Source of the DNA: Gammaproteobacteria bacterium
GTDB taxonomy: Bacteria > Pseudomonadota > Gammaproteobacteria > UBA4575
Assembly (NCBI GenBank): GCA_965243395.1
Contig: CBDEUS010000002.1
Span: 96,001 to 160,000, forward strand
Direction: 5' to 3'
Length of the DNA stretch: 64,000 bases
Shown here: positions 8,138-60,324 of the stretch, in pieces
How the letters are laid out: every line of letters begins with the position of its first letter
How positions within the stretch are numbered: position 1 is the stretch's first letter
The notes under the pieces: model-generated
The model's database searches: none
Seen by the model: only the letters and a program-made list of their open reading frames with translations
Told to the model about the DNA's origin: nothing
Translations under genes and position numbers: made by a program

Positions 8138-8575
8138 TTAATGTGAATGCTTATGGTTGTGATACGCTCCAGACTCAGGTTCAAAAGGTTTCATTTCATG
8201 TGCCACAGTCAAACCCAGACTTATTATCATTTCATCCAGCACGTGGTCTTTTTGATAGACCAATAATGATTCTTCAACTTGCAATGCCACATGACGATTT
8301 CCTAAATGATATGCGGCTTTCATCAACAGCAATTTATCATCCGAACTTACAACCGAAACTTCTTCAGGCGCTGCAATAATTTTCGCAATCTCTCCATCAT
8401 CACTCTTTAAGCAATCGCCACCACGTAAAATTTCACCTCTTGATAACATTAACCCGACTTCTTCACCACTATCTGATTTTGTTTTCAAGCGTGCTTTTTG
8501 TCTTAGCTCATACGCTAGGGTTAATGTATGACTGTGTTCATGTGTGTGACTGACACGTTCAGTAAATATACGCAT
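8138..8575 (-). CDS. ureE: Urease nickel chaperone
   Basis: AYHLGNRH, FEPESGAY, His tail. Confidence 0.96.
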   Translation of the reverse strand: MRIFTERVSHTHEHSHTLTLAYELRQKARLKTKSDSGEEVGLMLSRGEILRGGDCLKSDDGEIAKIIAAPEEVSVVSSDDKLLLMKAAYHLGNRHVALQVEESLLVYQKDHVLDEMIISLGLTVAHEMKPFEPESGAYHNHKHSH

Positions 8576-10278
8576 TAGAATAGAAAATATTTTTGCGCCA
8601 TTGGAAGAACTGTTGCAGGCTCACAAGTTAACAATTCGCCATCCGCACGCACTTCATACGTTTGTGGATTAACTTCCATGTTTGGTTGGTAAGTATTTAA
8701 GTGCAGATCTTTCTTTCTAACATTTCGAGTATTACTAACAGGTGCCACAATCTTATCTAAACGCAACTTATCTTTAATTCCTTCATTCATTGCAGCTTGT
8801 GAAACAAATGTGATGGATGTTGAAGCATTAGCTTTGCTTTGTGCACCAAACATGTATCGGTAATGAGTTGGCTGTGGAGTTGGAATAGAAGCATTAGGAT
8901 CCCCCATTGGGGCTGCAACAATAAACCCACCTTTTATGATTAGCGATGGTTTCACACCAAAAAACGGCGGTTTCCAAAGAACCAAATCGGCCAGCTTACC
9001 TACTTCTATTGAACCCACTTCATTTGCAATGCCATGAGTAATTGCAGGATTGATGGTGTATTTAGCAACATATCGTTTAATTCTAAAATTATCATTTTGA
9101 CTATTGTCTTCAGGTAACGCACCTCGTTGTACTTTCATTTTATTAGCCGTCTGCCAAGTACGAGTGACGACTTCGCCGACGCGACCCATTGCTTGCGAAT
9201 CGGATGCAATCATGCTGAACGCACCCATGTCATGCAGAATGTCTTCAGCAGCAATGGTTTCTTTTCTAATTCTGGATTCAGCAAAAGCAACGTCTTCTGG
9301 TATGTTTGGGTCTAAATGGTGACAAACCATTAACATATCCAGGTGTTCATCAATGGTATTTACTGTAAAAGGTCTTGTTGGATTTGTGCTGGAAGGTAAT
9401 ACATTCGATTGACCGCAAACACGAATAATGTCCGGTGCGTGCCCACCACCTGCACCTTCAGTATGGTAAGTATGAATAGCGCGGTCTTTAAACGCTGCAA
9501 TCGTGTCTTCTACAAACCCAGATTCATTTAATGTATCCGTATGTATGGCTACTTGAATATCAAATTTTTCAGCCACATTTAAGCAGCTATCAATAGCTGC
9601 GGGTGTAGTCCCCCAGTCTTCATGAAGTTTAAGCCCCATTGCACCGGCTTCAATTTGTTCATCTAGCGCTGCAGACAAACTTGAATTGCCCTTACCGAGA
9701 AAACCAAGATTCATTGGTAAACTATCTGCCGCTTCTAACATACGGTGTATGTTCCAGGGACCCGGTGTGCAAGTCGTTGCATTCGTGCCAGTTGCAGGTC
9801 CGGTTCCACCACCCAGCATCGTTGTAACGCCAGACATCAGTGCATCTTCAATTTGTTGCGGACATATGAAATGTATATGCGCATCAATACCCCCCGCCGT
9901 AAGAATTTGACCCTCACCCGCTATCGCTTCTGTCCCCGGACCAATTACAATATCAACATCAGGTTGAACATCCGGATTGCCGGCTTTACCAATTGCAGCA
10001 ATGCGACCATCTTTAATTCCTACGTCTGCTTTTACTATTCCCCAATAATCAACAATGGTTGCATTAGTAATGACGGTGTCTACCGCTTCTTTAGATGTAG
10101 CCTGGCTTTGACCCATACCATCTCTAATTACTTTACCCCCACCAAACTTTACTTCTTCTCCGTAAGTTGCAAAGTCTTTTTCTACTTCTAGTAATAACTC
10201 CGTATCGGCAAGACGTAAACGATCACCTACTGTAGGCCCATACATTTCCGCATAGGCTTGTCTTGAAATTTTACTCAT
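8575..10278 (-). CDS. ureC: Urease alpha subunit
   Basis: [31 protein letters not shown]. Confidence 0.98.
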
Positions 10279-13512: not shown

Positions 13513-14655
13513 TTAACCTACATTTACTTTTTTTGTGTCGGGTTCAATAGGTTTACTAGACTTTGTCGCAAAGTTTTTAACTGCTCCTACAATTCCTTTT
13601 GGCAAAAACAGCGTCACAAAAACAAACAGGCCGCCTAACATGAACAACCAAACCTCGGGAGCAGCCGCAGTGAAATATGTTTTAGCGAAATTAACCACTA
13701 CTGCACCTAAGGCAGCACCATACAGTGTGCCTCTTCCCCCAATGGCCACCCAAATCACCATTTCGATTGAATTGATTGGTGAAAATTCACCTGGGTTAAT
13801 AATGCCAACCTGCGGAACATAAAGCGCGCCTGCAAGGCCTGCTAACATGGCAGCTACTACAAAGACGAATAATTTGATGTATTCATCTCTATAACCTAAA
13901 GCGCGCACCCTACCTTCCGAGTCACGTATAGCGGTTACCAGACTTCCAAGTCTTGATTGCACAATAAACTTACAAATCAGGTAACCAAAAATTACCGCAA
14001 GACCTGAACAAATGAATAGCACAACTCGTGTTGCATCAGACTGAAGATCAAATCCTAAAATATCTTTAAAGTCTGTGAGTCCGTTGTTACCGCCAAAACC
14101 AAAATTATTTCTAAAAAATGCAAGCATGAGTGCATACGTTAACGCTTGAGTAATGATGGATAAATAAACTCCCGTTACCCTGGAGCGAAATGCAAGCCAC
14201 CCAAATACAAAAGCAAGCAAACCGGGTACAAAGAAAATCATAATGAAAGCAAACCAAAACATATCAAAGCCATACCAGAACCATGGCAACTCTTTATAAT
14301 TCAAGAAAACCATAAAATCCGGTAATACTGGGTGGCCATAAACACCGCGATCACCAATTTGCCTCATGAGATACATCCCCATTGCGTACCCACCTAATCC
14401 AAAAAATGCTCCATGTCCTAAACTCAAAATTCCCAAATACCCCCAAACGAGATCTAAAGAAATTGCGAGTAATGCGTAGGTTAAATATTTGCCAACCAAG
14501 GTAACAACGTAAGTAGACATGTGAAATACAGATGTCTCTGGCACAACTAAATTGCAGAAAGGGACTATCACCATAAGAGCTAAAATAACTGCTAGAAAGT
14601 AGCGACCTCCTTTATCGATTTCTAATAAACGAAAAATGATGGGCTTGTATTTCAT
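13513..14655 (-). CDS. urtC: Urea ABC transporter permease
   Basis: DLVWGYLGILSLGHG, LPDFMVFL. Confidence 0.93.
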   Translation of the reverse strand: MKYKPIIFRLLEIDKGGRYFLAVILALMVIVPFCNLVVPETSVFHMSTYVVTLVGKYLTYALLAISLDLVWGYLGILSLGHGAFFGLGGYAMGMYLMRQIGDRGVYGHPVLPDFMVFLNYKELPWFWYGFDMFWFAFIMIFFVPGLLAFVFGWLAFRSRVTGVYLSIITQALTYALMLAFFRNNFGFGGNNGLTDFKDILGFDLQSDATRVVLFICSGLAVIFGYLICKFIVQSRLGSLVTAIRDSEGRVRALGYRDEYIKLFVFVVAAMLAGLAGALYVPQVGIINPGEFSPINSIEMVIWVAIGGRGTLYGAALGAVVVNFAKTYFTAAAPEVWLFMLGGLFVFVTLFLPKGIVGAVKNFATKSSKPIEPDTKKVNVG

Positions 14656-14657
14656 TT

Positions 14658-16289
14658 TTAACTTTCTGCCGCTCTACCCTTAAGTGCAAACATGCCTCTT
14701 GGATACTTTTGTATAAATAAAATAATAAAAATAAGCACGAGAATTTTTGCAAACACAGCGCCCGTAAAGGGTTCCATAAATTTGTTAGCGATTCCTAATG
14801 TCATGGCGCCAAAGAATGTTCCCCATAAATTTCCAACACCACCAAAGACAACAACCATGAATGAATCAACAATGTAAGCCTGTCCTAAATTTGGCCCCAC
14901 GTTTGTAAGCTGGCTAAGTGCCACACCACCAACACCTGCAATTCCAGAACCCAAACCAAAAGTTAGTGAGTCAACCCAGTTGGTTCGGATGCCCATTGCT
15001 TTAGCCATGTTGCGATTCTGGGTTACCGCGCGCATTTGTAACCCAAATGAAGTTTTCTTAAGTAACCACAGCAACGCAAATAAAACCAATAAGGCAAACA
15101 AAACAATGTACATTCTGTTATAGGTAAGAGATAAAGCCGGATTGAATTCATATGACCCGCTCATCCAATCCGGTGTAATCACAGAACGATTAAGCGGTGA
15201 AAAGATTGATCGAACCGCCTGTTGCAGAATTAAACTTAAACCAAATGTCGCCAATAAAGTTTCAAGAGGTCTGCCATATAAATATCGAATGATCCCACGC
15301 TCTATACCTATCCCTACTAAACCTGTAAATATAAATGCAGCCGGAATAGCGATGAATAATGAATATTCAATCGAATTTGGCATGAGTTGCTGAATGACAA
15401 ACGTCGTATAGGCACCCAGCATTAACATTTCTCCATGAGCCATATTAATTACACCCATTACACCAAACGTTATCGCCAAGCCCACTGCCGCAAGCAGTAA
15501 GACTGATCCTAAACTCAAGCCAAAAAAGATATTTTCGATTTGTTTATAAAATCCCTTCTTAAGTTTCGTGGACTGTATGGACTCATCTAATGCTTCTAGA
15601 AGTTCTGTATCTTTTTCAGGTTTTGCAAGTTGTTCAGCATTTAATTTATCAAGCAAAATACCAATCTCTGGATAAAGAGATCCTGACAATGATTTTATGG
15701 CATGAACTTGTGTGTCTCGATCATCAGATTGCGCATCCACTGCGTGGATACAAATTTGCATAAGCTGTCTAACGTCTTCATCAGATTCCTGCTTGACTGC
15801 GTTTCTTATTATTTCGATTGACGATGGATTAAGATTTTTTAAGATATTTCTTGTTGCTTGTAAGCGAGTTTCTTTATTTTCGCTATAAATAGTTAGCGCT
15901 GCTATTTTTTCATTTAACAAGCCGCGTAATTTATTATTTATTCCTACTTTTCTAAGCTCTTTCTTTTTCTTTTCACCTAACGCTTCATTATTTATTGGAT
16001 CAAATGTTTTAAAATTTTTTGAATTAATCTTTTCAATTTTGACAACTTGTTTGTCTTTTTTTCCGTAATACAACTTCCCATCTAATAAGTTAGATAAGAT
16101 ACTCAGCGCAGACGGATGCCCAGAATCAGAAATAGCATCAATTGCTTTTGTTTTATCTGAAAAGCTTTTGGAAGTTAAAAGCTCAAAACTGCCTTCAAGT
16201 GAGTTGATATTTTCAGAAGACTCACTTGCAAATAAATTGTGTGTCGAGAACACAAAAAGCAACAGCATTACAGAGTAAAGCTTCATCAT
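14658..16289 (-). CDS. urtB: Urea ABC transporter permease with large periplasmic N-domain
   Basis: GVINMAHGE, ends KGRAAES. Confidence 0.93.
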   Translation of the reverse strand: MMKLYSVMLLLFVFSTHNLFASESSENINSLEGSFELLTSKSFSDKTKAIDAISDSGHPSALSILSNLLDGKLYYGKKDKQVVKIEKINSKNFKTFDPINNEALGEKKKKELRKVGINNKLRGLLNEKIAALTIYSENKETRLQATRNILKNLNPSSIEIIRNAVKQESDEDVRQLMQICIHAVDAQSDDRDTQVHAIKSLSGSLYPEIGILLDKLNAEQLAKPEKDTELLEALDESIQSTKLKKGFYKQIENIFFGLSLGSVLLLAAVGLAITFGVMGVINMAHGEMLMLGAYTTFVIQQLMPNSIEYSLFIAIPAAFIFTGLVGIGIERGIIRYLYGRPLETLLATFGLSLILQQAVRSIFSPLNRSVITPDWMSGSYEFNPALSLTYNRMYIVLFALLVLFALLWLLKKTSFGLQMRAVTQNRNMAKAMGIRTNWVDSLTFGLGSGIAGVGGVALSQLTNVGPNLGQAYIVDSFMVVVFGGVGNLWGTFFGAMTLGIANKFMEPFTGAVFAKILVLIFIILFIQKYPRGMFALKGRAAES

Positions 16290-40916: not shown

Positions 40917-42113
40917 CTATCCTTTTACACATACAACTTGACGCAAAGTGTGTTCAACGCTTACTAAATCATTTTGGTTTTCCATCACCACATCAATATC
41001 TTTATATGCGCCAGGAATTTCATCTAACACACCTTTGTCTTTACGACATTCAACACCAGCCGTTTGCGCTTCAATATCTTCTTCATTGAAATGGCGTTTT
41101 GCTTTACCACGACTCATACGTCGACCTGCACCATGCGAACATGAACTAAATGATTCAGGGTTACCTTTGCCACGAACAATGTAAGATTTAGCGCCCATAC
41201 TACCCGGAATAATTCCAAGCTCATCCACACCAGCACGAATCGCACCTTTGCGTGTAATGTAAACATTTTCACCAAAATGGTTTTCCATAGACACATAATT
41301 ATGATGACAATTGATGGCTTCTTTAGTGATACCAAATTTCGGTAACACTTTTTTTAATGCATCAATTATCAAGCGCATCATTTCTTTGCGATTTTCCATT
41401 GCGTAATCTTGAGCCCAGTTCACTGCATTTACATAGTCATCAAAGTGCTCTGCCCCTTCAGTAAAATATGCTAAATCTTTATCTGGCAAATTATGAATAT
41501 GCTTTTGCATATCTTTTTGTGCTAATCGAATAAAGAATTGGCCAATAATATTCCCTACTCCACGGCTACCCGAATGAAGCATAATCCATACATCATTATT
41601 TTCATCTAAACAGATTTCAATAAAATGATTCCCACCACCAAGTGTGCCTAGTTGACGCACCCAAGTTTGATAAGGCTTTTTCTGCATCTTTAAAAGTTTG
41701 GGGTGTTTTTCTAGTAAGCGATCTAAACCGTCAGATAAAGGTCGTATAGTTGAATTGCGAGCTTTATCTGACTTATGCATATCAAAACCAACAGGTATTG
41801 CAACTTCAATAGCAGTACGCACTTTGCGTAAGTTATCTGGAAGATCATTAGCATTCATTGAAAGACGCAAAGCATTCATTCCACAACCAATGTCTACACC
41901 AACCGCAGCAGGAATAATTGCACCTTTACATGGAATTACCGAACCCACAGTCGCACCTTTACCAAAGTGCACATCCGGCATCGCCGCAATATGACTATGG
42001 ATAAAAGGCAACTGTGATAGGTTGCATAGTTGCTGGTAGGCTTCGTGCTCTATGTCATCAGTATAGATTTTTACTCGCACATTACCTTTGGTAATGACTT
42101 TTTTAATTGGCAT
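40917..42113 (-). CDS. rtcB: RNA ligase RtcB
   Basis: MPDVH, VGVDIGCG, GGGNHF, HSGSRG, HNY, SHGAGR, AYK. Confidence 0.96.
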   Translation of the reverse strand: MPIKKVITKGNVRVKIYTDDIEHEAYQQLCNLSQLPFIHSHIAAMPDVHFGKGATVGSVIPCKGAIIPAAVGVDIGCGMNALRLSMNANDLPDNLRKVRTAIEVAIPVGFDMHKSDKARNSTIRPLSDGLDRLLEKHPKLLKMQKKPYQTWVRQLGTLGGGNHFIEICLDENNDVWIMLHSGSRGVGNIIGQFFIRLAQKDMQKHIHNLPDKDLAYFTEGAEHFDDYVNAVNWAQDYAMENRKEMMRLIIDALKKVLPKFGITKEAINCHHNYVSMENHFGENVYITRKGAIRAGVDELGIIPGSMGAKSYIVRGKGNPESFSSCSHGAGRRMSRGKAKRHFNEEDIEAQTAGVECRKDKGVLDEIPGAYKDIDVVMENQNDLVSVEHTLRQVVCVKG

Positions 42114-42125
42114 ATGTCACCCTAA

Positions 42126-42367
42126 TTAATCTCTAAAATATTCATTTCTATTAGAACCATCATGTCGCTTTTTCTTCAAGCAACAATTCTTGAAATCTAC
42201 GCCCTGATCCACATACACATGGATCATTCCGGCCGAACTTCTCGCTAAGTTCTTTATTGCCATGAACGATTCTATTTCCTCGTTTAACGTTTGTTTCTGA
42301 TGGGAATCCTTTACGACGTTTACTCATACGCTCAAAAGGATTGATCCTTATTTTTAAATTTACACAT
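42126..42367 (-). CDS. SEC-C motif protein split over three frames (two +1 shifts)
   Basis: GAGGTG-ATG 42367; middle frame [14 protein letters not shown]; the +1 frame continues FKNCC...EYFRD*. Confidence 0.7.
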
Positions 42368-42393
42368 GTTGCACCTCACATTACTAAACTAAA

Positions 42394-42780
42394 TCAGTTG
42401 TATTTTTTGCGATAGTTACTGGTAAAAGGTTGCGCAACAATTTGATAATCATCTTGATAGCGTATCCTTCCAATTTCCTCACATTTAATCATATCTACAG
42501 CAATACCTTTATTTTGTATTACAGAAAAGAGCTTCCACATAACGCGTATATGCTCTTGTGCACTAGGTTTAAACCAACACAGGCAGCGATAGTTACCGGG
42601 TATCTTCAAAATAGGAGGCACAATTAAATTTCTATCAATCCATCTAAACACATATTGAACTTCTTCATATTCATAATCAGTGAATGAATTGTTGTATTTT
42701 AGCTTGTACGCAAGATGTATTAGGCCTTGTTCATAACGTGACCTCCTGTCTTGGCACAGCCCAATAAATCGTAAGTACAT
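42394..42780 (-). CDS. Hypothetical protein in the rtcB operon
   Basis: 128-aa ORF, CLCWFK, YQDDYQIVA. Confidence 0.7.
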   Translation of the reverse strand: MYLRFIGLCQDRRSRYEQGLIHLAYKLKYNNSFTDYEYEEVQYVFRWIDRNLIVPPILKIPGNYRCLCWFKPSAQEHIRVMWKLFSVIQNKGIAVDMIKCEEIGRIRYQDDYQIVAQPFTSNYRKKYN

Positions 42781-42869
42781 TTTTAATATCCATTTATATT
42801 ATTTCTCAAATTTAATTAAATGACGCAGGCCCTCAAATAATAGAGGGCCTTTGTCAGTTTATACTCACG

Positions 42870-44018
42870 CTACCCATCAACTTTGATTTGTACCGTGTCT
42901 TTTAGGATGCCATCCAAACCTCCGAAGACAGTTAGTTTGTCTACTTTGTCAGTGACTTTTTCCAACGTCTCCAACTCTTTCAAGCGCATCAAGGTTGGGT
43001 TGTCATCCATCAATTTCGCAGTGTTCAACAATGAACGTGTAGCTGCAGTTTCTTCACGTCTTTTAATGACATTTGCTTGCGCCACTTTTTCTGCTTGAAC
43101 TACTTGGTTCAAGATATCTTTCATGTCGCCTGGCAAAATGACATCTTTCACGCCAACGCTGCGAATTTCGATACCGTATTCAGATACGTTTGCTTTAACA
43201 GATTCGTAGACGTATTTGTCTAGTTCATCTTTAGTTACAAGCAATGCATCCAAAGTGCGTGTACCAATTACCTGACGAAGTGCAAATTGCATTTCGCGGT
43301 AAATGTATCCAGCAAGGTCTACCAATTCATGACGCGCTTTAATTGGGTCACGAATTTGATATTGAGCTGACAAGTTTGCACGTAGGCTAACTTTGTCTTT
43401 TGTCAAAACCTCTTGACCTTGCACTTCCATGCTTTGCATTCGCAAATCAACTTGTTCAACTATTACGTTGCGGTTGTATTTCCAGTATGCGTACAAGCCT
43501 GGTTGCAATGATTCTTTTAATTCACCATCCACAACCAATAGGCCAACATAGTTGTCTGCAACTTCTGCGATGTAAATTGAATTAATCAATTCACTTGGTA
43601 CTTGTTTCGCACGTGTGTGCACAAACTGACCCACTTTATTTGCAGGCAATGCAAAATCTTCTGCAATATTTTGCACTTCAACTGTCATTTCAACTGGACC
43701 TTTCCAAAATAATTGGCGTGTACCAGGTGCTACAACAGTGCTCAATTGGCCACGTTGATAAACCAATCCAACTTCATATGCGTCGGTTTCAACAACTTGG
43801 AAGTATTTTGTTACTATCTCAGGTTGTTCTTTTACCAAGACATCCACATATTTGTGGTTGAATTGCGCTTCCGTTACATCATAAATCTCGACTTGAATTC
43901 GGCCGAAAATATCGAAATATCGATATACGCCTGGTTCAAGCACTTTTACAATGCTTCGGTTTTTCAAGTAAATTCCTCGCTCATGCTGCGCAATAACAAT
44001 TCTTTTAAATCCGAACAT
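42870..44018 (-). CDS. Slipin-family SPFH/band-7 protein
   Basis: GQEVLTKDKV, RREETAATRSLLNTA, LMRLKELE. Confidence 0.92.
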   Translation of the reverse strand: MFGFKRIVIAQHERGIYLKNRSIVKVLEPGVYRYFDIFGRIQVEIYDVTEAQFNHKYVDVLVKEQPEIVTKYFQVVETDAYEVGLVYQRGQLSTVVAPGTRQLFWKGPVEMTVEVQNIAEDFALPANKVGQFVHTRAKQVPSELINSIYIAEVADNYVGLLVVDGELKESLQPGLYAYWKYNRNVIVEQVDLRMQSMEVQGQEVLTKDKVSLRANLSAQYQIRDPIKARHELVDLAGYIYREMQFALRQVIGTRTLDALLVTKDELDKYVYESVKANVSEYGIEIRSVGVKDVILPGDMKDILNQVVQAEKVAQANVIKRREETAATRSLLNTAKLMDDNPTLMRLKELETLEKVTDKVDKLTVFGGLDGILKDTVQIKVDG

Positions 44019-44044
44019 AATTACTCCTTATTAAATAAAGTTTC

Positions 44045-44515
44045 GGGAAATGCTCCACATATAAATTGCGGGTAAACTCCTGTTGTAGTAACGGGTCTAA
44101 AATCTTTCGCATGTCATTGCGATACCCCAACTATCGCTTTGAACATGTTTCAGTCTCTAGACTGGTTATCACAAGCTTGTGATCACGCAGGCAATCTACA
44201 TGTTGCGACATAAAAAACTCTCAACCGTAGTTGAGCTATTTGAAATGTCGCGGGAACATTTCCCTGGTTAGTGTTTTCACACAAAATGCGGATTCGAACC
44301 GCAGGCTTTCGCCATTACCAATGAACAACGTTTAAAGTTGTCGAAAGAACAGGAATCGAACCTGCAACATTTCCGTTATCAGCGGAATGCTCTCCCTTTG
44401 AGCTATCTTTCACTGGTGTATCGGACCACTTACAACTTTGTATACACATTGCAATCACCTTTCGGCTTAGCTTTTGTGCACAGGTCTGAATTCAAGAATC
44501 AGATCCGCTAAGTAA
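44045..44515 (-). ncRNA. Candidate highly structured ncRNA/leader upstream of slipin
   Basis: Dense hairpins, GNRA tetraloop GGC-GAAA-GCC, stand-alone T-arm TGCGG-TTCGAAT-CCGCA, nested tRNA-like domain. Confidence 0.6.
44341..44412 (-). tRNA. tRNA-Ile(GAT)-like domain lacking encoded CCA
   Basis: Full cloverleaf, TTCCG-CT-GAT-AA-CGGAA, GGTTCGATTCC. Confidence 0.65.
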
Positions 44516-44636
44516 ATAAATGTCTCTCAATACTCATGAACTCAATGTTTATAAAACATCGAATTACAATTCTTTAAATACAGGTGACCTGCCCCATTGC
44601 AGGCCACCATTTTTCACGCCCCCTTTCTCCTAAAAT

Positions 44637-45203
44637 TTAACGTCGCTCTTTAGGACATTGTGTTTTCAAGAACGCCATTTGGTCTGCCAAAATTTTGCGG
44701 TTAGATAAAATCAATCCTTCTGCATAATTTGGCTCATATGGAATTCCTAATAATGAAATTCCTATTCTTTCTGCCTCACTAGGCATTAAGCTATCTTTAC
44801 GTGCATTACATGCACGGCATGCTGTAACCACATTCATCCATGTGTTTTTCCCACCACGTGATAGTGGAATCACATGATCGCGCGTTAAGCGATTTCGAGA
44901 ATATTGATCACCGCAATACATGCACATGTAATCATCACGTCGAAACAATCTTGCATTTGTCAGTGCAGGCACTTCACGAATGTGGTCGTCTGATCGCATC
45001 ACACCATGTGTTGCAACAATACTGTTCACATCAATAAATGAACGAGTTCTTGTTCTGCGATTTACACCACCATGAATACGAAAAGAATTTGAACCCATTT
45101 CGTAAACAACTTGTTCTCGTGCATACACTAATGCTGCATATTCCCAGTTCATCCATTCAACTGGACGCCCAGCTACGTCTAAACGCAAAATTAAATTTTC
45201 CAT
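44637..45203 (-). CDS. HNH endonuclease
   Basis: RRDDYMCMYCG, TRDHVIP, NVVTACRACN. Confidence 0.92.
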   Translation of the reverse strand: MENLILRLDVAGRPVEWMNWEYAALVYAREQVVYEMGSNSFRIHGGVNRRTRTRSFIDVNSIVATHGVMRSDDHIREVPALTNARLFRRDDYMCMYCGDQYSRNRLTRDHVIPLSRGGKNTWMNVVTACRACNARKDSLMPSEAERIGISLLGIPYEPNYAEGLILSNRKILADQMAFLKTQCPKERR

Positions 45204-45231
45204 TTAACTTTTCTCTTTTATAAAGTTACTG

Positions 45232-45254
45232 TTTAACAATTTGGATGATTGAAG
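45232..45254. repeat. Trailer arm of perfect 23-bp inverted repeat enclosing the tRNA array
   Basis: TTTAACAATTTGGATGATTGAAG = reverse complement of 48565-48587. Confidence 0.95.
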
Positions 45255-45263
45255 AGTTTAATT

Positions 45264-45340
45264 TGGTACGCAGCCCCAGATTTGAACTGGGAATCAAGTA
45301 GGTTTGAGCTACTCAGGTCTTCCAATTGCCTCAGCTGCGC
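45264..45340 (-). tRNA. tRNA-Leu(CAA), short variable loop
   Basis: AGTAG-CT-CAA-AC-CTACT, CCA. Confidence 0.85.
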
Positions 45341-45352
45341 AAAAATTTAATT

Positions 45353-45429
45353 TGGTATCCCTGGCAAGATTCGAACTTGCAACATTCTGGTTTTAAGTCA
45401 GATGCGTCTTCCGGTTGCGCCACAGGGAC
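45353..45429 (-). tRNA. tRNA-Leu(TAA), short variable loop
   Basis: TCTGA-CT-TAA-AA-CCAGA, CCA. Confidence 0.85.
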
Positions 45430-45440
45430 GTAATGTAATT

Positions 45441-45518
45441 TGGTAGCCACCCTCGGATTTGAACCGAGATGCACCATGTTCTAAGCATGGTAGGTATGCC
45501 AATTCCCGTCAGATGGCC
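45441..45518 (-). tRNA. tRNA-Leu(TAG), short variable loop
   Basis: CCATG-CT-TAG-AA-CATGG, CCA. Confidence 0.85.
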
Positions 45519-45561
45519 AAAATTTTTATTTTTATAATTTAGTTATACATAAATTATGATT

Positions 45562-45637
45562 TGGTACCCCTAGTAAGATTCGAACTCACATCAACTGATT
45601 TAGAAGATCAGTGCTTTTCCAATTAAGCTATAGAGGT
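45562..45637 (-). tRNA. tRNA-Arg(TCT)
   Basis: CTGAT-CT-TCT-AA-ATCAG, CCA. Confidence 0.9.
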
Positions 45638-45659
45638 AAAAAACTAATTGAATTATTTT

Positions 45660-45756
45660 TGGTACCCCAACCAAGATTCGAACTTGGATCTACCACTAAT
45701 CTGGTGCGTGAATCACGGGATATAAATCCGCTGCTTTACCGTTAAGCTATTGGGGC
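45660..45756 (-). tRNA. tRNA-Ile(TAT) with ~27-nt extra region
   Basis: GCGGA-TT-TAT-AT-CCCGT, 97 nt, CCA. Confidence 0.75.
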
Positions 45757-45765
45757 AAAATTTTT

Positions 45766-45839
45766 TGGACACTCCGCTCAGAATTGAACTGAGTCCTCAA
45801 GGGTTGCAACCTTGCGTCTTGCCGATCGACCACGGAGTG
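45766..45839 (-). tRNA. tRNA-Cys(GCA)
   Basis: CAAGG-TT-GCA-AC-CCTTG, U73, CCA. Confidence 0.88.
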
Positions 45840-45840
45840 T

Positions 45841-45915
45841 TGGCACATCCGGAAAGATTTGAACTTTCATCTTTGGGTTTGGAGGCCAATGTTCTGCCAA
45901 TTGAACTACAGATGC
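45841..45915 (-). tRNA. tRNA-Trp(CCA)
   Basis: CT-CCA-AA loop, G73, CCA. Confidence 0.88.
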
Positions 45916-45917
45916 TC

Positions 45918-45993
45918 TGGCTGGGAGTCCTGGACTCGAACCAAGATCTCAAGAGTCAAAGTCTTGCGTCTTAACCAGTTAGACGAATTCCCA
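45918..45993 (-). tRNA. tRNA-Gln(TTG)
   Basis: CAAGA-CT-TTG-AC-TCTTG, U1-A72, G73. Confidence 0.9.
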
Positions 45994-46002
45994 TTTTTGT
46001 TT

Positions 46003-46079
46003 TGGCGCGGTTGGAAAGACTCAAACTTTCATCTTCGACTTTCGTAGAGTCGTGCTTTATCCGATTAAGCTACAACCGC
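46003..46079 (-). tRNA. tRNA-Arg(ACG)
   Basis: CGACT-CT-ACG-AA-AGTCG, CCA. Confidence 0.9.
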
Positions 46080-46087
46080 AAAAACTT

Positions 46088-46163
46088 TGGTAGCCCGAAT
46101 CCGATTCGAACGGATAACTTTCGCTTTGTAAGAACGACACTCTGCCAATTGAGTTATCGGGCT
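46088..46163 (-). tRNA. tRNA-Val(TAC)
   Basis: TCGTT-CT-TAC-AA-AGCGA, CCA. Confidence 0.9.
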
Positions 46164-46171
46164 AAAATTTT

Positions 46172-46243
46172 TGGTAGTTACGGTTAGAATCGAACTAACA
46201 AGTCCAGGGTTATGAGCCCTAGCCGAAGACCACTTCCGTAACT
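46172..46243 (-). tRNA. Initiator-like tRNA-Met(CAT) with aberrant short D-arm
   Basis: TAGGG-CT-CAT-AA-CCCTG (3 G-C pairs), 72 nt, CCA. Confidence 0.75.
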
Positions 46244-46251
46244 AAAGTATT

Positions 46252-46325
46252 TGGTGGATCCAGTAGGAGTCGAACCTACCTCTGCGGGTTAAAAGCCCGC
46301 TGCACAACCGCTATGCCATAGATCC
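46252..46325 (-). tRNA. tRNA-Lys(TTT)
   Basis: GCGGG-CT-TTT-AA-CCCGC, CCA. Confidence 0.9.
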
Positions 46326-46326
46326 T

Positions 46327-46402
46327 TGGCACGCCTGAAAGGAGTTGAACCTTTATCTCACTGGTTCGAAGCCAGTGGCTCTTCCAATTAAGCTACAGAC
46401 GT
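46327..46402 (-). tRNA. tRNA-Arg(TCG)
   Basis: ACTGG-CT-TCG-AA-CCAGT, CCA. Confidence 0.88.
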
Positions 46403-46404
46403 AT

Positions 46405-46495
46405 TGGCGGAGAAGAACAGATTCGAACTGTTGAATGAAAAATTTCCATCCCTCCTTTAGCAAAGGAGTGCTTTAAACCACTCAGCCACTTCTCC
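46405..46495 (-). tRNA. tRNA-Ser(GCT)
   Basis: CTCCT-TT-GCT-AA-AGGAG, long variable arm, G73. Confidence 0.9.
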
Positions 46496-46555
46496 AATTT
46501 ATAATTTGCAGCGCTTCGCGATATTTAATTTGCGAGTAATACCCACTCGCAAGCG

Positions 46556-46631
46556 TGGGGTGAACTACCGGACTCGAACCGGTATCTACCAGATTCACGT
46601 TCTGGGGCTTTGCCATTAAGCTAAGCTCACC
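46556..46631 (-). tRNA. tRNA-His(GTG)
   Basis: CCAGA-AC-GTG-AA-TCTGG, encoded G-1 and C73. Confidence 0.88.
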
Positions 46632-46642
46632 ATAATTATTTT

Positions 46643-46734
46643 TGGCGGAAGGCGGAGGGCACGATCCCCACCAACTAAAAAGCCAGCCACCAGTTTTCAA
46701 GACTGGGACACCCCCACTGGGTGAATCACCTTCC
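46643..46734 (-). tRNA. tRNA-Ser(TGA), non-canonical 8/4 fold
   Basis: CCAGT-CT-TGA-AA-ACTGG; 8-bp acceptor GGAAGGTG/CGCCTTCC, 4-bp T stem, long variable arm, G73. Confidence 0.8.
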
Positions 46735-46749
46735 TTATATATGTAAATT

Positions 46750-46824
46750 TGGAGCGGATAATCGGATTCGAACCGATATTTATGGTTTGGAAGACCATCA
46801 CTCTGCCAATTGAGTTATACCCGC
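46750..46824 (-). tRNA. tRNA-Gly(TCC)
   Basis: ATGGT-CT-TCC-AA-ACCAT, U73. Confidence 0.9.
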
Positions 46825-46829
46825 AGATT

Positions 46830-46907
46830 TGGTCTGAGTGGCTGGATTCGAACCAACGACCTCTCGCTTCCAAGGCGAGTACTCTGCCCAGGCTGAGCTA
46901 CACTCAG
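46830..46907 (-). tRNA. tRNA-Pro(TGG)
   Basis: CTCGC-CT-TGG-AA-GCGAG, C1-G72. Confidence 0.9.
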
Positions 46908-46934
46908 AGAATTAATTAAATATAAAAAATTATT

Positions 46935-47010
46935 TGGTGCATCGAGTTGGACTTGAACCAACGACCACACGATTATCGGTCGTGCGCTCTACCAACTGAG
47001 CTATCGATGC
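46935..47010 (-). tRNA. tRNA-Ile(GAT)
   Basis: CACGA-CC-GAT-AA-TCGTG, CCA. Confidence 0.9.
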
Positions 47011-47011
47011 T

Positions 47012-47086
47012 TGGTGTTCCTGACCAGAATTGAACTGGCATCTCGAGTTTGAAAGACTCGTGACCTCACCATTAGTCGACAGGAAC
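47012..47086 (-). tRNA. tRNA-Glu(TTC)
   Basis: CGAGT-CT-TTC-AA-ACTCG, CCA. Confidence 0.9.
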
Positions 47087-47100
47087 TAATAAAATATTTT

Positions 47101-47176
47101 TGGCGGACCCGATCGGACTCAAACCGACATCCCCTTTATCGACAGTAAAGTGCTTTATCAATTAAGCTACGAATCC
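47101..47176 (-). tRNA. tRNA-Asp(GTC)
   Basis: CTTTA-CT-GTC-GA-TAAAG, G73. Confidence 0.88.
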
Positions 47177-47184
47177 AACTTTTG

Positions 47185-48045
47185 TTTAAAGGTTGAGACT
47201 ATGCCTTTAAAAATCACTCTTTTGTTGAAGTACCTAACGCATTGCTGTGCGATAGTTGCCAACGTGTCCACATTACCCTGGTTGCTCCAGCGATTATGTT
47301 AGTGATCATGACTGCTTTTTTTAAAGTGTAGCGATTCACTTGTCGCGTTAATCTATTCAGCTATTCACTTACCGAGAACCTTGCCAGGCTCTAAACGGAG
47401 GCTATCCGAACGTGCAATGAAGTAACTAAAGTTCTTTGGCTTGCGACCGCAGAATCTTCCATGTTCCCAAGTGGGCATGGACTTAAGTCATTTTCAATTA
47501 ACACCGAGACGCGTCTTTGCGTTTCACCGTATGGTGATCTATGTGGGAGTCGAACCCACGACCTATTGATTCTAAGTCAATCGCTCTACCAATCTGAGCT
47601 AAAAGATCAGGTACTACTAAGACGTGCACGTCTCAGTTGCTTCATTATTTTTTGAATAACGAAATACAACACGCCTTTTGTCTTTCCTCTGCCGAGTACT
47701 TAACCGAATATTCGGATCATGGCTTCCACCCATTTCCCTAATAATCTGCACAACCGCACTTGTCTGCAAAACTCGTACTATGTTGTACTACCTGTTATCT
47801 CTCGTAGTACGCAATCTAGTATCACGGGTTACAGCACTACCTGTATCTTTCTCACGACCCGTATTCCCAAGTAAACCTGGTACGTCAATCGTGGTACTTC
47901 CGCGTATTGCTTGGCTACTATTGCCGATTGAATTACGACAACATGGAGACCAGGCTTGCTTGGTTTGACCTACTTTGAAAAGTGGGCGAAATACCGTAGT
48001 CGTATTCCTTTCCTATCGTTGCCGATAGTTATCGTGCCAAGCCAC
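47185..48045 (-). ncRNA. Large structured ncRNA, GOLLD-like, with nested tRNA
   Basis: ~860 nt with no credible ORF inside the tRNA array, many stems, repeated ACAGGTAGT motif, 3' hairpin TTTAAAGG-CATAGTCTCAA-CCTTTAAA; family assignment from recalled properties, not a search. Confidence 0.6.
47532..47608 (-). tRNA. Class-I-shaped tRNA with TAG (Leu) anticodon nested in the large ncRNA
   Basis: ATTGA-CT-TAG-AA-TCAAT, GGTTCGACTCC, CCA; one acceptor-stem mismatch. Confidence 0.8.
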
Positions 48046-48050
48046 ATATT

Positions 48051-48126
48051 TGGTGGAGGATCACGGATTTGAACCGTGCGCCTTCTGTTTGCAATACAGA
48101 CGCTCTGCCAACTGAGCTAATCCCCC
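48051..48126 (-). tRNA. tRNA-Ala(TGC)
   Basis: AT-TGC-AA loop, G3-U70. Confidence 0.9.
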
Positions 48127-48135
48127 AAACTTATT

Positions 48136-48210
48136 TGGCTGCGACGGTTGGACTCGAACCAACATTGCTTCGCTTAACAGACGAATGTTCTACCATTGAA
48201 CTACATCGCA
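48136..48210 (-). tRNA. tRNA-Asn(GTT)
   Basis: TTCGT-CT-GTT-AA-GCGAA, G73. Confidence 0.9.
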
Positions 48211-48218
48211 ATTATATT

Positions 48219-48295
48219 TGGTGCATCAGGATGGATTCGAACCACCATCGCGTCGGGCTTCAACCGACCGCTCTACCCATTGGAGCTACCGATGC
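48219..48295 (-). tRNA. tRNA-Phe(GAA)
   Basis: GTCGG-TT-GAA-GC-CCGAC, CCA; unrelated in sequence to the att-type Phe fragments. Confidence 0.88.
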
Positions 48296-48304
48296 AAAAA
48301 TAAT

Positions 48305-48389
48305 TGGTGGAGAGAGATGGATTCGAACCACCACGCTAATAATTAGCACTGGGTTACAGCCAGCGTGTCTCACCAATGACTGTCTCTCC
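48305..48389 (-). tRNA. tRNA-Tyr(GTA)
   Basis: CTGG-CT-GTA-AC-CCAG, variable arm GCTAAT-T-ATTAGC. Confidence 0.85.
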
Positions 48390-48401
48390 TAAAGTTAAAA
48401 C

Positions 48402-48477
48402 TGGAGCTGGTGATAGGCGTCGAACCTACAACCTACTGCTTACAAAGCAGTTGCTCTGCCATTTGAGCTACACCAGC
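48402..48477 (-). tRNA. tRNA-Thr(TGT)
   Basis: ACTGC-TT-TGT-AA-GCAGT, CCA. Confidence 0.9.
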
Positions 48478-48486
48478 AAAAAATAT

Positions 48487-48559
48487 GGGACAGTCGCACA
48501 TGCGCACAACTCAACTTAGGAGTTGGGCATAATTTAAAAATTAAATTACGCACTGCCCC
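48487..48559 (-). ncRNA. Small four-way-junction RNA element at the head of the array
   Basis: Closing stem GGGGCAGT/ACTGTCCC with three internal hairpins. Confidence 0.45.
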
Positions 48560-48564
48560 GCCTA

Positions 48565-48591
48565 CTTCAATCATCCAAATTGTTAAAGAGC
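48565..48591 (-). promoter_or_regulatory. rrn-type boxA antitermination site overlapping the leader arm of the 23-bp inverted repeat
   Basis: GCTCTTTAACAATTT matches the gammaproteobacterial rrn boxA. Confidence 0.85.
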
Positions 48592-48604
48592 TACTGCCAG
48601 GACT

Positions 48605-48639
48605 AAAAAACCCCGGAAGGCGAACCTAACCGGGGTTTT
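48605..48639 (-). terminator. Intrinsic terminator (attenuator) before the tRNA array
   Basis: AAAACCCCGGTTAGGT-TC-GCCTTCCGGGG-TTTTTT. Confidence 0.88.
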
Positions 48640-48693
48640 ATTTTGATTCCGGAAGGCTCGCAACGCGCACCCTCCGAATTAATTTGGAAGGTA

Positions 48694-48849
48694 CTACGTA
48701 ATTGGGTCCTCTAAGGTGGCCCCAATAAAATTATTTGTGCCGAGATTCGATATCTCATGCACAGCAACACACCACAAAAAACACGACGGCTTTAATAACC
48801 GCTGCATTAGTTGCGCTGAAAAACTAGTTGTATATGTACTTCTATTCAT
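48694..48849 (-). CDS. Putative 51-aa leader peptide MNRSTYTTSFSAQLMQRLLKPSCFLWCVAVHEISNLGTNNFIGATLEDPIT
   Basis: Starts 10 nt after the -10 box; stop abuts the first attenuator segment; contains all 20 amino acids. Confidence 0.7.
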   Translation of the reverse strand: MNRSTYTTSFSAQLMQRLLKPSCFLWCVAVHEISNLGTNNFIGATLEDPIT

Positions 48850-48859
48850 AGTGCGCGAA

Positions 48860-48887
48860 AGTCTAATGATATGGATTTTAAAGTCAA
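48860..48887 (-). promoter_or_regulatory. sigma70-like promoter with GC-rich discriminator
   Basis: TTGACT-N16-TAGACT-TTCGCGCACT-ATG. Confidence 0.72.
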
Positions 48888-48937
48888 GTAATATTTTACT
48901 AAGTAAAGTGTGAATTTACGCCCAATTATCGGCCAAA

Positions 48938-49591
48938 TTAATCCTCAAGGGCTGACAAAAAAGAAATCATTGCTTTACGTTGTTTTTCATTTAAAGAGAG
49001 TGATGCAGAAATTATTTCTTGAATGTCCGTTAATTGTTTTTGAAATTCTTTATTGTTCAATTCTTTAGGTGCTTCATCCAACCAACCTACTGGTTTTTTT
49101 GCTGCAACTTCAATTCCTCTTGCAAACTCATCACTCATGCTTGGAATAAATGGTGTTTTGTAATGTTGTTGAAATAATTCCCATGATACTCCTGCTGATT
49201 CACATTCTTTTTTAGAACAAACCTTATTACCAGACTTTCCACATAGGGTCTTAAAGTTTGTAAATCTAACGATTTGAAGAAATGGGTCTAAGTTTTTTAC
49301 AGGAGCAGTGCCAAATAATAACCAATTGGTGGAATATCCAGTAACTTTGCTAATACCTTCAATGATTTTTAAATTTGGGTTTTGTGGAGCCGACGTTTCG
49401 TAAAGAGAAAGAAGTTGTTTTGACACCTTTAGTCTTCTTTTTTTCAATAATTGCATCATCTCACTTGGATCAATGCCATTAACTACACGTGCAAAACGCA
49501 CCCTTGATGAAACTGTAGCTAATTCATTTTTTCGTTTTGAACTACTAGTTGATTTTTTGGAGACACGACGTTTAGATTTATTTTTTACCAT
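48938..49591 (-). CDS. XRE/Cro-like HTH protein
   Basis: VSKQLLSLYE...ISKVTGYSTNWLLFG; second HTH-like ARGIEVAAKKPVGWLD. Confidence 0.7.
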   Translation of the reverse strand: MVKNKSKRRVSKKSTSSSKRKNELATVSSRVRFARVVNGIDPSEMMQLLKKRRLKVSKQLLSLYETSAPQNPNLKIIEGISKVTGYSTNWLLFGTAPVKNLDPFLQIVRFTNFKTLCGKSGNKVCSKKECESAGVSWELFQQHYKTPFIPSMSDEFARGIEVAAKKPVGWLDEAPKELNNKEFQKQLTDIQEIISASLSLNEKQRKAMISFLSALED

Positions 49592-58904: not shown

Positions 58905-59088
58905 CCTGCTTCATAACTGTAGATACTCGTGCACGTTTCGTGTTTAATAGTAATTAAATCTTACACTTAAAACGTTTAATTAATTTTAAACGTGTCTAAT
59001 CGTAGCACGAAATCTTCCACCAAATGGTATGAAAAAAGTGCAAGGGTGGTGCAAAGTTCGCTACGAGGATTTTTTGGAGGATGACCAT

Positions 59089-60324
59089 ATGAGTAAACAT
59101 CAAATCCACTTAACCAAACACGATGTACAAAACTATCCACGACCCGAACAAGGAATGCTTCGATTGTGGGACAGCGAGATTGAAGGTTTGTATGTTTTAA
59201 TTCCAGCTGCAGGAAAACGAACCGCATACTTTCGTTATCGCATTCAAGGACGCCAACGTGATTTTCGCATTGGTCGCATCGATCGTCTGAGCTTGAAGGC
59301 AATACGTGATGAAGCCAAAAAGTGCGCCGCGAGAGTCGAGCTTGGCCAAGACATACAAGAAGCCAGAAATGCAGCTAAGCTTGCGCTACGTGAAGCCAAA
59401 AATAATCAAGGTGCGCCCAATCTCCAATTGTTTGGAGACTTCTATCAACACTATTACATCGATTATGCAAAAGCGACACTGAAAGATTATCGAAAACGTC
59501 TACGAGCCATCGAATTTAACTTTTCACAATGGTTTGATAAACGTTTAGATGAAATCAATGTGCCGTTAGTGGCTAGTTGGCGTAATCACAAACTGGCAAC
59601 ACCTGTTACAGTAGGCAAAGGCGACAATCAAAAACAACGTGAACGTACTACCGGCGCGATCAATCGACCGGTTGGCTATTTGAAAGCGCTACTCTCCGTT
59701 GCTTATGAAGAAGCGGAGCTTTTGGATCATCACCCTCTTGATCGACTCAAACCTTTGAAAGAACCTCGACACAAGCGTGATCGGTTCTTAACCAATGAAG
59801 AATTTAAACGTTTACGTAATAGTTTGCGCGGACGTGATGATTATCTACCGGTTTTAATAGAACTGGGTATTAACACAGGTTTGCGTTTGAATGAGATGCT
59901 CACCTTAGAATGGGGATCAGTTGATTTACGTAATCAGACGCTGACGGTGGAAAGTCATTACGCCAAAAGCAAACGCAAGCGAACCGTTCCACTCAATAAT
60001 TCGATTACCGCAGTCATACGTGATTGGAAACTTCGTACTCAACGCTTTGGTCCATGGGTATTCACCAATCCGAATACCGATAATCACTACGTCTCCATTT
60101 ACCGCGCATGGAATACAGCGATGCAAGAAGCCGGCATTGAAAACTTCGTGCGTCATGATTTACGCCGTACCTTTGGCAGTTGGCTCGCCGAACGCGGTGA
60201 GAGCATTTATGTGATTAAGAATTTACTCGGACACTCCAGTGTGAAAGTCACCGAAGAAAGTTATGCGTATCTACAAGACAAATCTCAACGCGATGCGGTA
60301 GAACGCCTTGAAGCGATCGCATAG
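59089..60324 (+). CDS. Tyrosine recombinase/integrase with arm-binding domain
   Basis: WDSEIEGL, TGLRLNE, HDLRRT, LLGHS, Y; GGAGG RBS favours ATG 59089. Confidence 0.95.
   Translation: MSKHQIHLTKHDVQNYPRPEQGMLRLWDSEIEGLYVLIPAAGKRTAYFRYRIQGRQRDFRIGRIDRLSLKAIRDEAKKCAARVELGQDIQEARNAAKLALREAKNNQGAPNLQLFGDFYQHYYIDYAKATLKDYRKRLRAIEFNFSQWFDKRLDEINVPLVASWRNHKLATPVTVGKGDNQKQRERTTGAINRPVGYLKALLSVAYEEAELLDHHPLDRLKPLKEPRHKRDRFLTNEEFKRLRNSLRGRDDYLPVLIELGINTGLRLNEMLTLEWGSVDLRNQTLTVESHYAKSKRKRTVPLNNSITAVIRDWKLRTQRFGPWVFTNPNTDNHYVSIYRAWNTAMQEAGIENFVRHDLRRTFGSWLAERGESIYVIKNLLGHSSVKVTEESYAYLQDKSQRDAVERLEAIA

Follow-up and report, generated by a model that had tools for sequence, protein, structure and literature searches.

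The window analysed here, a stretch of 64,000 nucleotides (nt) from a gammaproteobacterium of the lineage UBA4575 (contig CBDEUS010000002.1, positions 96,001 to 160,000), carries a dense array of tRNA genes. Between two of these genes, the minus strand very probably encodes a GOLLD RNA of ~860 nt (47185-48045), composed of a structured 5′ domain, a conserved 3′ domain and a tRNA-shaped insert in the linker of the latter. GOLLD RNAs are among the largest structured RNAs of bacteria. The RNA described here belongs to the GOLLD family, pairs covary in both of its domains, and a conserved helix closes its linker. It is part of a module that is also present in another genus. The GOLLD family, its tRNA-array setting, the HNH neighbour, an internal pseudo-tRNA and the storage hypothesis are already in print, and current views are not overturned. 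What is new is the host class, Gammaproteobacteria, and the setting in a chromosomal L-array module instead of a prophage. The coordinates of all features are collected in Table 1.

A reading of the sequence alone had taken the region for a GOLLD-like giant RNA of about this size. The Rfam model of the family, RF02032, bears this out. Searched against the whole window, it matches 47190-47677 on the minus strand with 153.5 bits (cut-off 150, E 4.7e-41), and the alignment spans model positions 1-416 of 416. This is the single GOLLD copy in the 2.58-Mb genome. ROOL gave no match at the gathering score in the Rfam scan of the whole window, and a permissive Rfam scan of 47000-48200 returned neither ROOL nor any other large-RNA family at E <= 1. 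The gene lies in an interval of 874 nt between tRNA-Asp (end 47176) and tRNA-Ala (start 48051). The boundaries proposed from the sequence fit the structure: the terminal hairpin has its foot at 47185, its stem TTTAAAGG/CCTTTAAA (47185-47211), already noticed in the sequence, is the last hairpin of the Rfam model, and the first helix of the 5′ domain begins at ~48042. Folding of the 874-nt RNA yields -255.6 kcal/mol (z = -4.32), a stability that none of 20 shuffles attains, in line with the stem-rich, non-coding character first ascribed to the interval.

The same interval contains just two open reading frames (ORFs) of at least 60 amino acids (aa), both on the plus strand: one of 64 aa (47461-47655) and one of 96 aa (47678-47968), which starts with TTG. 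Although both frames are present, the chance that the region codes for protein through either of them is negligible. Substitutions follow the pattern expected of paired RNA columns, the 64-aa frame crosses the tRNA gene in antisense, and the Rfam match accounts for the sequence.

RF02032 models the conserved 3′ domain of GOLLD only. The remaining part, 47678-48045, behaves in alignments as a conserved structured RNA domain of its own. RNAalifold applied to all ten full-length copies gave a fragmentary 5′ consensus with two subgroups aligning poorly, and six homologues were therefore used. Their consensus for the 5′ domain has 95 pairs, 46 of which hold their pairing via changes on both sides. 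The predicted partners pair in 92.8% of cells, as opposed to 36-41% when they are slid by 1-3 columns. None of 500 shuffles reaches the observed covariation score, and the same is true for four of five measures; for the fifth, which covers further pair types, 144 of 500 do so. These statistics refer to six related sequences, the four more distant copies of the ten having been left out for poor alignment. Two short motif pairs had also been picked out in the sequence. ACGGGT/ACCCGT forms helix 10 of the covariation-supported fold. The proposed local hairpin GTACTAC/GTAGTAC finds no support: its bases have distant covarying partners in the consensus fold, and the hairpin is not formed in the homologue at locus L025.

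The two parts form separate structural domains in the solved GOLLD (PMC12286853), and the Rfam model covers the 3′ part only, both of which would suit two independent RNAs. Such a split is nevertheless very unlikely. A single 753-nt contig from an RNA library (47260-48012) crosses the boundary at 47677/47678, no promoter-like or terminator-like site is reported there on the minus strand, and a 5′-domain-like region directly abuts the 3′ domain in all 10 homologues with enough upstream sequence.

In the 3′ domain, the first hairpin (P14 in the cryo-electron microscopy (cryo-EM) numbering) was compared in 13 sequences. Its 21 pairs are 88-94% paired, with 11 pairs changed on both sides, and its loop CAAAA is aligned to the UCAAAAG of the Rfam model. 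The GOLLD pseudoknot between J13/15 and L20 is likewise kept: in the window, 9 of its 10 pairs form in the Rfam alignment. Across 10 sequences, 9 of 10 pairs have changed on both sides and none of 500 shuffles reaches the score, with a register that is blurred by the alignment.

A further helix is not in the Rfam structure line. The sequence-only reading had enclosed the tRNA in a helix of 47506-47517 with 47619-47634. Its outer part stands, as 47627-47635 with 47505-47513, and recurs in 13 of 13 homologues; positions 47619-47624 belong instead to the first stem of the Rfam model. In the RNA, 5′-UGAGACGUG (47635 to 47627) pairs with 5′-CGCGUCUCG (47513 to 47505) over 9 pairs. We refer to this element as the linker-closing helix. 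It is 91.1% paired across 13 sequences. Its six core pairs are standard in 13/13 homologues, with three wobble-compatible one-sided changes, and two outer pairs switch between A-U and G-C on both sides, each in 3 sequences. Gaps and mismatches at the outer pairs in five sequences stem from an alignment shift of one column. The block GCAAAGACGCGUC at the 3′ arm is invariant in all 13 sequences. With its 5′ arm placed within the first stem (47671-47677 with 47619-47625), the helix constitutes an H-type pseudoknot with respect to that stem.

The tRNA itself had also been seen in the sequence, and ARAGORN calls a tRNA-Leu(tag) at 47532-47608 on the minus strand. Its variable loop has 5 nt, its Rfam score of 71.1 bits is the second best in the array, and CCA is encoded, as it is in the other 23 tRNAs of the main block. 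That GOLLD carries this tRNA holds; its location in one of the stems was imprecise, as in the Rfam alignment it occupies the unpaired linker that runs from the first 3′-domain hairpin to the pseudoknot strand. The anticodon of the insert is Leu-UAG in the window, in G028 (a genome of another genus) and in L025, Leu-AAG in L040, Trp in L138, Ile in L137 and Asn in L136. In L145 and L146 the anticodon loop is malformed. ARAGORN calls no insert in L140/L144, L142, L143 and L147, where Rfam finds partial or weak tRNA matches. In the 13-sequence alignment, the D (92%), anticodon (95%) and T (98%) stems are paired, and 5/5 pairs of the anticodon stem covary. In the acceptor stem, pairing drops to 54-76%, and L140, L143 and L147 lack its 3′ strand. 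With anticodon and acceptor varying and the D, anticodon and T stems kept, selection maintains a tRNA-shaped body and not a given decoder or chargeable end. A small hairpin, found by eye, would pair the discriminator and CC of the tRNA with the trailer. By eye, equivalents that differ in sequence, with GAAA or GUAA as a frequent loop, are seen in 9 of 13 copies including the window.

Contigs from RNA libraries cover most of this architecture. Four marine metatranscriptome runs from one study contain 16-35% of the words of 46900-48950, and contigs from those four libraries map on 47204-48033 with up to 99.6% identity. The 753-nt contig has 3 differences from the window, and a 421-nt contig corresponds to 47204-47621; both pass through the tRNA insert. 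On the flanking tRNAs and the leader, one 18-nt piece lies in 46900-47175 and none in 48073-48950, a lack of cover that is not evidence. The contigs document presence in RNA libraries and agree with a long RNA whose insert is, at least in part, retained. Runs X5 and X6 also contain a second GOLLD relative (on 47504-47524 and 47659-47686), which is alike in the conserved linker flanks and has 129 different letters where the window has the 134-nt linker with its tRNA.

Homologues were collected in two ways. The RtcB protein of the module was searched in species-representative genomes and gave 43 loci, 7 of them with at least 6 tRNA genes. Among these 7, a full GOLLD is present in L004 (the locus of G028) and in L025, and the copy in L040 is cut by the contig end. 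The L025 copy (154.8 bits, full model) is flanked by tRNA genes and has a tRNA or tRNA-like match in its linker. A metagenome scan with a two-block pattern gave 12 loci, 11 of which have a GOLLD match: 2 above the cut-off, 8 full-model matches at 115-141 bits and 1 truncated. All 11 have a tRNA or tRNA-like match in the linker and tRNA genes on their flanks. L139 is apparently the same contig as L025, and L144 has the same score as L140; neither was counted twice.

GOLLD is shared within a larger unit. The module of ~8.6 kb comprises a 217-aa ORF, a leader, 24 tRNAs with GOLLD, and genes for an HNH endonuclease, an SPFH protein and the RNA ligase RtcB. It also includes an extra tRNA-Ile and a 128-aa ORF, and a gene for RlaP adjoins it in the window only. 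G028 carries these 25 tRNAs in identical order, and its GOLLD part is 96.0% identical. Of the flanks of the window, one is found in G028 on another contig (83-89%) and one ~260 kb from the module copy (81%). As the module is more similar than its flanks and sits at a different chromosomal site in G028, it is mobile, or at least exchanged.

Several findings weigh against the account given so far. The score of 153.5 bits is only 3.5 above the Rfam cut-off, and 9 of the 11 metagenome homologues fall under it (93.7-140.9 bits, E <= 1.6e-23). Because of this narrow margin and these low scores, this GOLLD subgroup lies at the edge of the curated family. The contigs are assembled products of one study and carry no strand, ends or level, and DNA carry-over is possible in RNA libraries. 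Two further contigs stop at 47608 and 47610, at most 2 nt from the 5′ end of the tRNA, and some RNase P cutting at the insert is possible. In addition, the insert of the window is a fully canonical tRNA by its score and encoded CCA, and it could be a working tRNA here.

If so, the insert would be an ordinary tRNA-Leu(UAG), the GOLLD flanks would serve as its precursor, and RNase P and 3′ trimming would release it, leaving the RNA in two pieces. The two contig ends would agree with this, as would the observation that 23 of 26 array tRNAs of Anabaena are charged in vivo. We nevertheless regard it as unlikely. The 753-nt and 421-nt contigs run past both tRNA ends, and close relatives have other anticodons, malformed loops or no 3′ strand of the acceptor. 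The array already contains another tRNA-Leu(tag), at 45441-45518. With 77 nt and its short variable loop, the insert also differs from the tRNA-Leu of the host (85-88 nt). Finally, the internal pseudo-tRNA of a mycobacterial GOLLD was undetected by northern blot (PMC6582537).

The distribution of GOLLD also weighs against the account. It is sporadic: counting the genome of the window (G000) each time, 2 of 61 relatives have it, as do 2 of 56 genomes from the order and 1 of 151 from a class sample, with none in the 150 other gammaproteobacterial families sampled. L016 and L019 have arrays that share the RtcB and the Ala...Asp neighbours and contain no GOLLD; the array does not need it. A blastn search for remnants in the matching gaps of arrays without GOLLD (L016, L025, L019) gave no match at E <= 1.

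This pattern would suit a passenger, i.e. a phage-derived RNA in the array that is carried by the mobile module and serves neither host nor module. The literature indeed places GOLLD mainly in phages and prophages (PMC12286853; Weinberg 2017). We consider a passenger a rather doubtful explanation. Compensatory changes keep both domains, the pseudoknot and the linker-closing helix across lineages that are ~69% identical in DNA, and GOLLD contigs are found in RNA libraries. Moreover, a viral collection, scanned with two conserved-block patterns that gave 77 and 12 loci, yielded no copy of the subtype by Rfam on 17 loci and nhmmer on the others. A motif filter retained three of the viral loci before Rfam was applied to 17 of the 89; none of these 17 contained GOLLD, and the other 72 were screened by nhmmer only. 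The nhmmer profile of the 3′ domain gave weak local matches only, with a best E of 0.0058. In a phage database, a blastn search at the distant setting returned 117 records, all tRNA-sized pieces of at most 9% of the query and none with at least 80% cover; a plasmid database gave no match. Selection can act even on a passenger, to the passenger's own advantage, and this rival is thus about the beneficiary and not about whether the RNA works.

Weighing these points, we infer that the most likely picture is a cage-forming RNA made from the array precursor, with a tRNA-like body locked in its linker, within a stress module for tRNA repair or replacement. The steps of this scheme differ in strength. 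GOLLD is probably made within the long precursor of the array and released by the enzymes that process the tRNAs on either side. By analogy with the solved GOLLD, we lean towards its forming a multimeric, RNA-only cage in which the linker insert is turned inward. Both elements that bridge the chains of the solved cage, the A-rich P14 loop and the J13/15-L20 pairing, are kept. The chances appear even that the insert mostly stays attached: the linker-closing helix and the hairpin at the CCA end would hinder RNase P and 3′ trimming, and if a cut is made, the helix would hold the halves together. More tentatively, GOLLD might serve the apparent task of the module, to sustain translation under tRNA damage or a block of translation, by presenting or shielding a tRNA-like body that is not a decoder. 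A more elaborate version, which we think improbable, makes the insert a built-in, processing-resistant tRNA mimic in the cage, locked by the pseudoknot helix and the CCA-end hairpin. Its anticodon loop would change freely from one close relative to the next (Leu, Trp, Ile, Asn, malformed) because the insert lures tRNA-targeting nucleases as a bait or decoy, or offers a handle to tRNA-binding repair factors such as the RtcB of the module. If the mimic exists, GOLLD would be the RNA arm of a transferable kit that sustains translation under tRNA attack.

Table 1. Coordinates of the features discussed in the text (positions in the 64,000-nt window)
Feature	Position	Strand	Basis or remark
Whole GOLLD RNA gene, ~860 nt (very probable), neighbours tRNA-Ala and tRNA-Asp	47185-48045	-	Rfam match and covarying 5′ domain
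GOLLD conserved 3′ domain including linker with tRNA	47190-47677	-	RF02032, 153.5 bits
GOLLD 5′ domain, outside the Rfam model	47678-48045	-	RNAalifold covariation, 6 homologues
First hairpin of 3′ domain (P14, cryo-EM numbering), A-rich loop CAAAA	47619-47677	-	Rfam alignment
J13/15 strand of GOLLD pseudoknot	47496-47505	-	Rfam structure line
L20 strand of GOLLD pseudoknot	47344-47353	-	Pairs with 47496-47505; Rfam alignment
Linker-closing helix, 5′ arm UGAGACGUG	47627-47635	-	In bulge of first hairpin
Linker-closing helix, 3′ arm CGCGUCUCG	47505-47513	-	Just downstream of tRNA
Internal tRNA-Leu(UAG), 77 nt, encoded CCA	47532-47608	-	ARAGORN; Rfam tRNA, 71.1 bits
Small hairpin UCACC-AUAC-GGUGA, tRNA discriminator and CC with trailer	47524-47537	-	By eye in alignment
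tRNA array, 25 genes (ARAGORN)	44340-48477	-	ARAGORN, Rfam
Terminator-like hairpin with U-run, array leader	48605-48639	-	Sequence; conserved in G028 and diverged L016
boxA-like element GCTCTTTAACAA, head of array	48580-48591	-	Unique in 2.58-Mb genome
Long-range stem, leader arm, 31 nt	48565-48595	-	90% complementary to 45224-45254
Long-range stem, trailer arm, just after last tRNA of main block	45224-45254	-	Pairs with 48565-48595
Module extent common with G028	40921-49558		Three blastn blocks, 91.8-93.4% identity
217-aa ORF, head of module, possible regulator	48938-49591	-	Sub-threshold HTH_3, E 0.008
HNH endonuclease gene in array	44637-45203	-	Pfam HNH_5, E 1.7e-16
SPFH/Band 7 protein gene	42870-44018	-	Pfam Band_7, E 7.9e-28
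RtcB RNA ligase gene, last of module	40917-42113	-	Pfam RtcB, E 6.2e-131

The array that surrounds GOLLD packs its 25 tRNA genes into 4.1 kb of one strand, and the other 36 tRNA genes of the genome are scattered. It may hold 26 genes rather than 25, as Rfam adds a 94-nt tRNA at 45663-45756 on the minus strand (55.3 bits) that ARAGORN misses. Conversely, the ARAGORN tRNAs at 45264-45340, 45441-45518 and 48305-48389 are not in the Rfam table. The four array genes with Leu anticodons (45264-45340, 45353-45429, 45441-45518 and 47532-47608) measure 77-78 nt and have no long variable arm. The host's own tRNA-Leu genes have 85-88 nt, and the Ser and Tyr genes of the array have long arms. Short "Leu" tRNAs are also found in L040, L140 and L025.

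Upstream of the array, a promoter-like site (48887-48860) is followed by a short ORF starting at ~48848 and then by the terminator-like hairpin. The sequence-only reading had placed the array under a translation-stress attenuator together with rtcB. The promoter-like site, the short ORF and the conserved terminator hairpin do precede the array and back this in part only; co-transcription of rtcB with the array is putative. The leader hairpin is a candidate for a translation-sensing attenuator.

The leader contains two further elements. The boxA-like element, extended to GCTCTTTAACAA(TTT), matches exactly, over 15 nt, a string from a primer published for "the boxA sequence of rrnB" of E. coli. 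It stands at the array heads of five lineages, namely in the window, L016:3342-3353, L025:194-205, L136:1082-1093 and L145:2529-2540, and in none of the other fetched loci. This suggests a putative antitermination of the array of the kind used for rRNA. The best boxA-like match in the host rRNA leader has 12 of 15 bases, which 38 of 200 shuffles equal, and at the level of search listings we found no paper in which boxA is mentioned together with long tRNA arrays. The second element is a long-range stem between leader and trailer. Complementarity of 29-32 nt is also seen in L004 (2309-2340 with 5822-5853) and L016 (3342-3370 with 6403-6431). In L016 the distal half of the stem is altered on both arms with complementarity kept, and L025 has a shorter equivalent directly after its last tRNA. 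Duplex energy does not discriminate in a shuffle control over 6.5 kb (L025: -39.2, minimum of 30 shuffles -42.5), since shuffled leaders reach similar values; position and exact complementarity do. The stem encloses the main tRNA block and GOLLD, an arrangement that may be compared with the processing stems of rRNA operons.

Within the common module, one large difference separates the two genomes: the gap between the SPFH and RtcB genes holds a 480-aa PcfJ-like gene in G028 (L003:3990-5432) and the 128-aa ORF in the window (42394-42780). Neither the 217-aa ORF nor the 128-aa and 99-aa ORFs belong to a Pfam or NCBIfam family, and the 217-aa ORF alone has its sub-threshold HTH_3 match. Neither in the window nor in G028 was an integrase or transposase found at the module borders, and no conspicuous terminal direct repeats were seen. 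In searches with the flanks, four genomes of the same genus gave no match for the left one, the right one was recovered only from G001 (82%) and G028, and no clean empty site could be drawn.

The genome (2.58 Mb in two contigs, 38% GC) is represented in the window by ordinary chromosome, with genes for urea and amino-acid transporters, urease, formamidase and membrane stress. None of the 47 window ORFs scanned belongs to a phage structural family, and there is no prophage around GOLLD. The sole integrase, a tyrosine integrase, lies at 59029-60324. Some 3.7 kb further on, just past the end of the window, is an odd tRNA-like gene with a 4-letter anticodon call (G000:C2:160036-160110), and the two may mark a separate integrated element. 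An Rfam match to 5_ureB_sRNA (9846-10128, plus strand, 83.1 bits) is antisense within the gene of the urease alpha subunit (8575-10278, minus strand) and is most likely due to the conserved urease coding sequence and not to a small RNA. Outside the window, a contig titled Candidatus Pacearchaeota carries a relative of RtcB and an array of 15 tRNAs (L044:14180-15784); inside this array is a match to archaeal RNase P RNA (RF00373, 95.3 bits, 14481-14704).

How does this locus relate to known systems? GOLLD RNAs have a conserved 3′ region and a variable 5′ region and lie near tRNA islands in phages and prophages (PMC12286853), and they have also been described outside prophages (Weinberg 2017). 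For Proteobacteria, we found nothing specific on GOLLD in the literature at the level of search listings. The cryo-EM structure of GOLLD env-38 is a 14-chain, RNA-only cage with an unresolved linker that points inwards, in which the J13/15-L20 pairing and the A-rich L14 loop bridge the chains (PMC12286853). In some cases tRNAs occupy the linker, where they are drawn as possible cage contents (PMC12286853). Both this paper and a 2026 review propose linker tRNAs that face the cage interior and are prevented from maturing. The role in tRNA storage, protection or decoying at which the sequence-only reading hinted is not new. The RNA of the window shares with RF02032 and env-38 the A-rich loop of the first hairpin, the J13/15-L20 pseudoknot and a terminal hairpin with the conserved UCUCA loop, as well as the length of ~860 nt, a separate and more variable 5′ domain, the tRNA-gene surroundings and a tRNA in the linker. 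It differs from them in its place on a gammaproteobacterial chromosome with no phage genes nearby. A further difference from the RF02032 structure line is the conserved helix that joins the first hairpin's bulge to the strand following the linker. ROOL resembles the RNA in its tRNA-island niche and, by the literature, in its cage-forming habit, but the interval has no match to it, as described above.

According to the 2026 review, GOLLD and ROOL are frequent in tRNA arrays, and an "inhibited storage" of an embedded tRNA-Phe is discussed for a Mycolicibacterium GOLLD. In mycobacteria, GOLLD lies in a transferred cluster of 32 tRNAs with HNH and an internal pseudo-tRNA and gave a weak northern signal (Behra 2019, PMC6582537). 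The window is like these clusters in having tRNA genes on both sides of GOLLD, in an array of > 25 tRNAs, HNH, an internal (pseudo-)tRNA and evidence of horizontal transfer. It differs from them in belonging to another phylum, in having RtcB, SPFH and a leader with terminator hairpin and boxA-like element, and in containing a canonical tRNA with CCA. Our comparison of 13 copies, with a tRNA-shaped body closed by a helix and no fixed decoder, narrows the published idea of "tRNA storage".

A counterpart of the module as a whole is the L-array of Anabaena. Translational stress induces L-arrays, HNH and rtcB are associated with them, and rtcB, HNH and a slipin are all members of the TrcR regulon (Santamaria-Gomez 2021 and the TrcR paper; PMC8421152, PMC10272220). 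Control there is exerted by TrcR, a ribbon-helix-helix repressor acting at promoter repeats, and not by an attenuator. PMC8421152 has 0 occurrences each of "attenuat", "leader peptide" and "GOLLD". The window and the Anabaena L-array have in common a dense, one-strand array of ~25 tRNAs on acquired DNA, HNH and rtcB, and a slipin/SPFH gene, which in Anabaena belongs to the regulon. They differ in that Anabaena has the TrcR repressor, whereas the window has a terminator hairpin and a boxA-like element, with no TrcR-like protein identified. The module genes, i.e. tRNA array, HNH, SPFH and RtcB, match a translational-stress regulon that was defined experimentally in Anabaena. This match links the question of GOLLD to a response open to induction and measurement.

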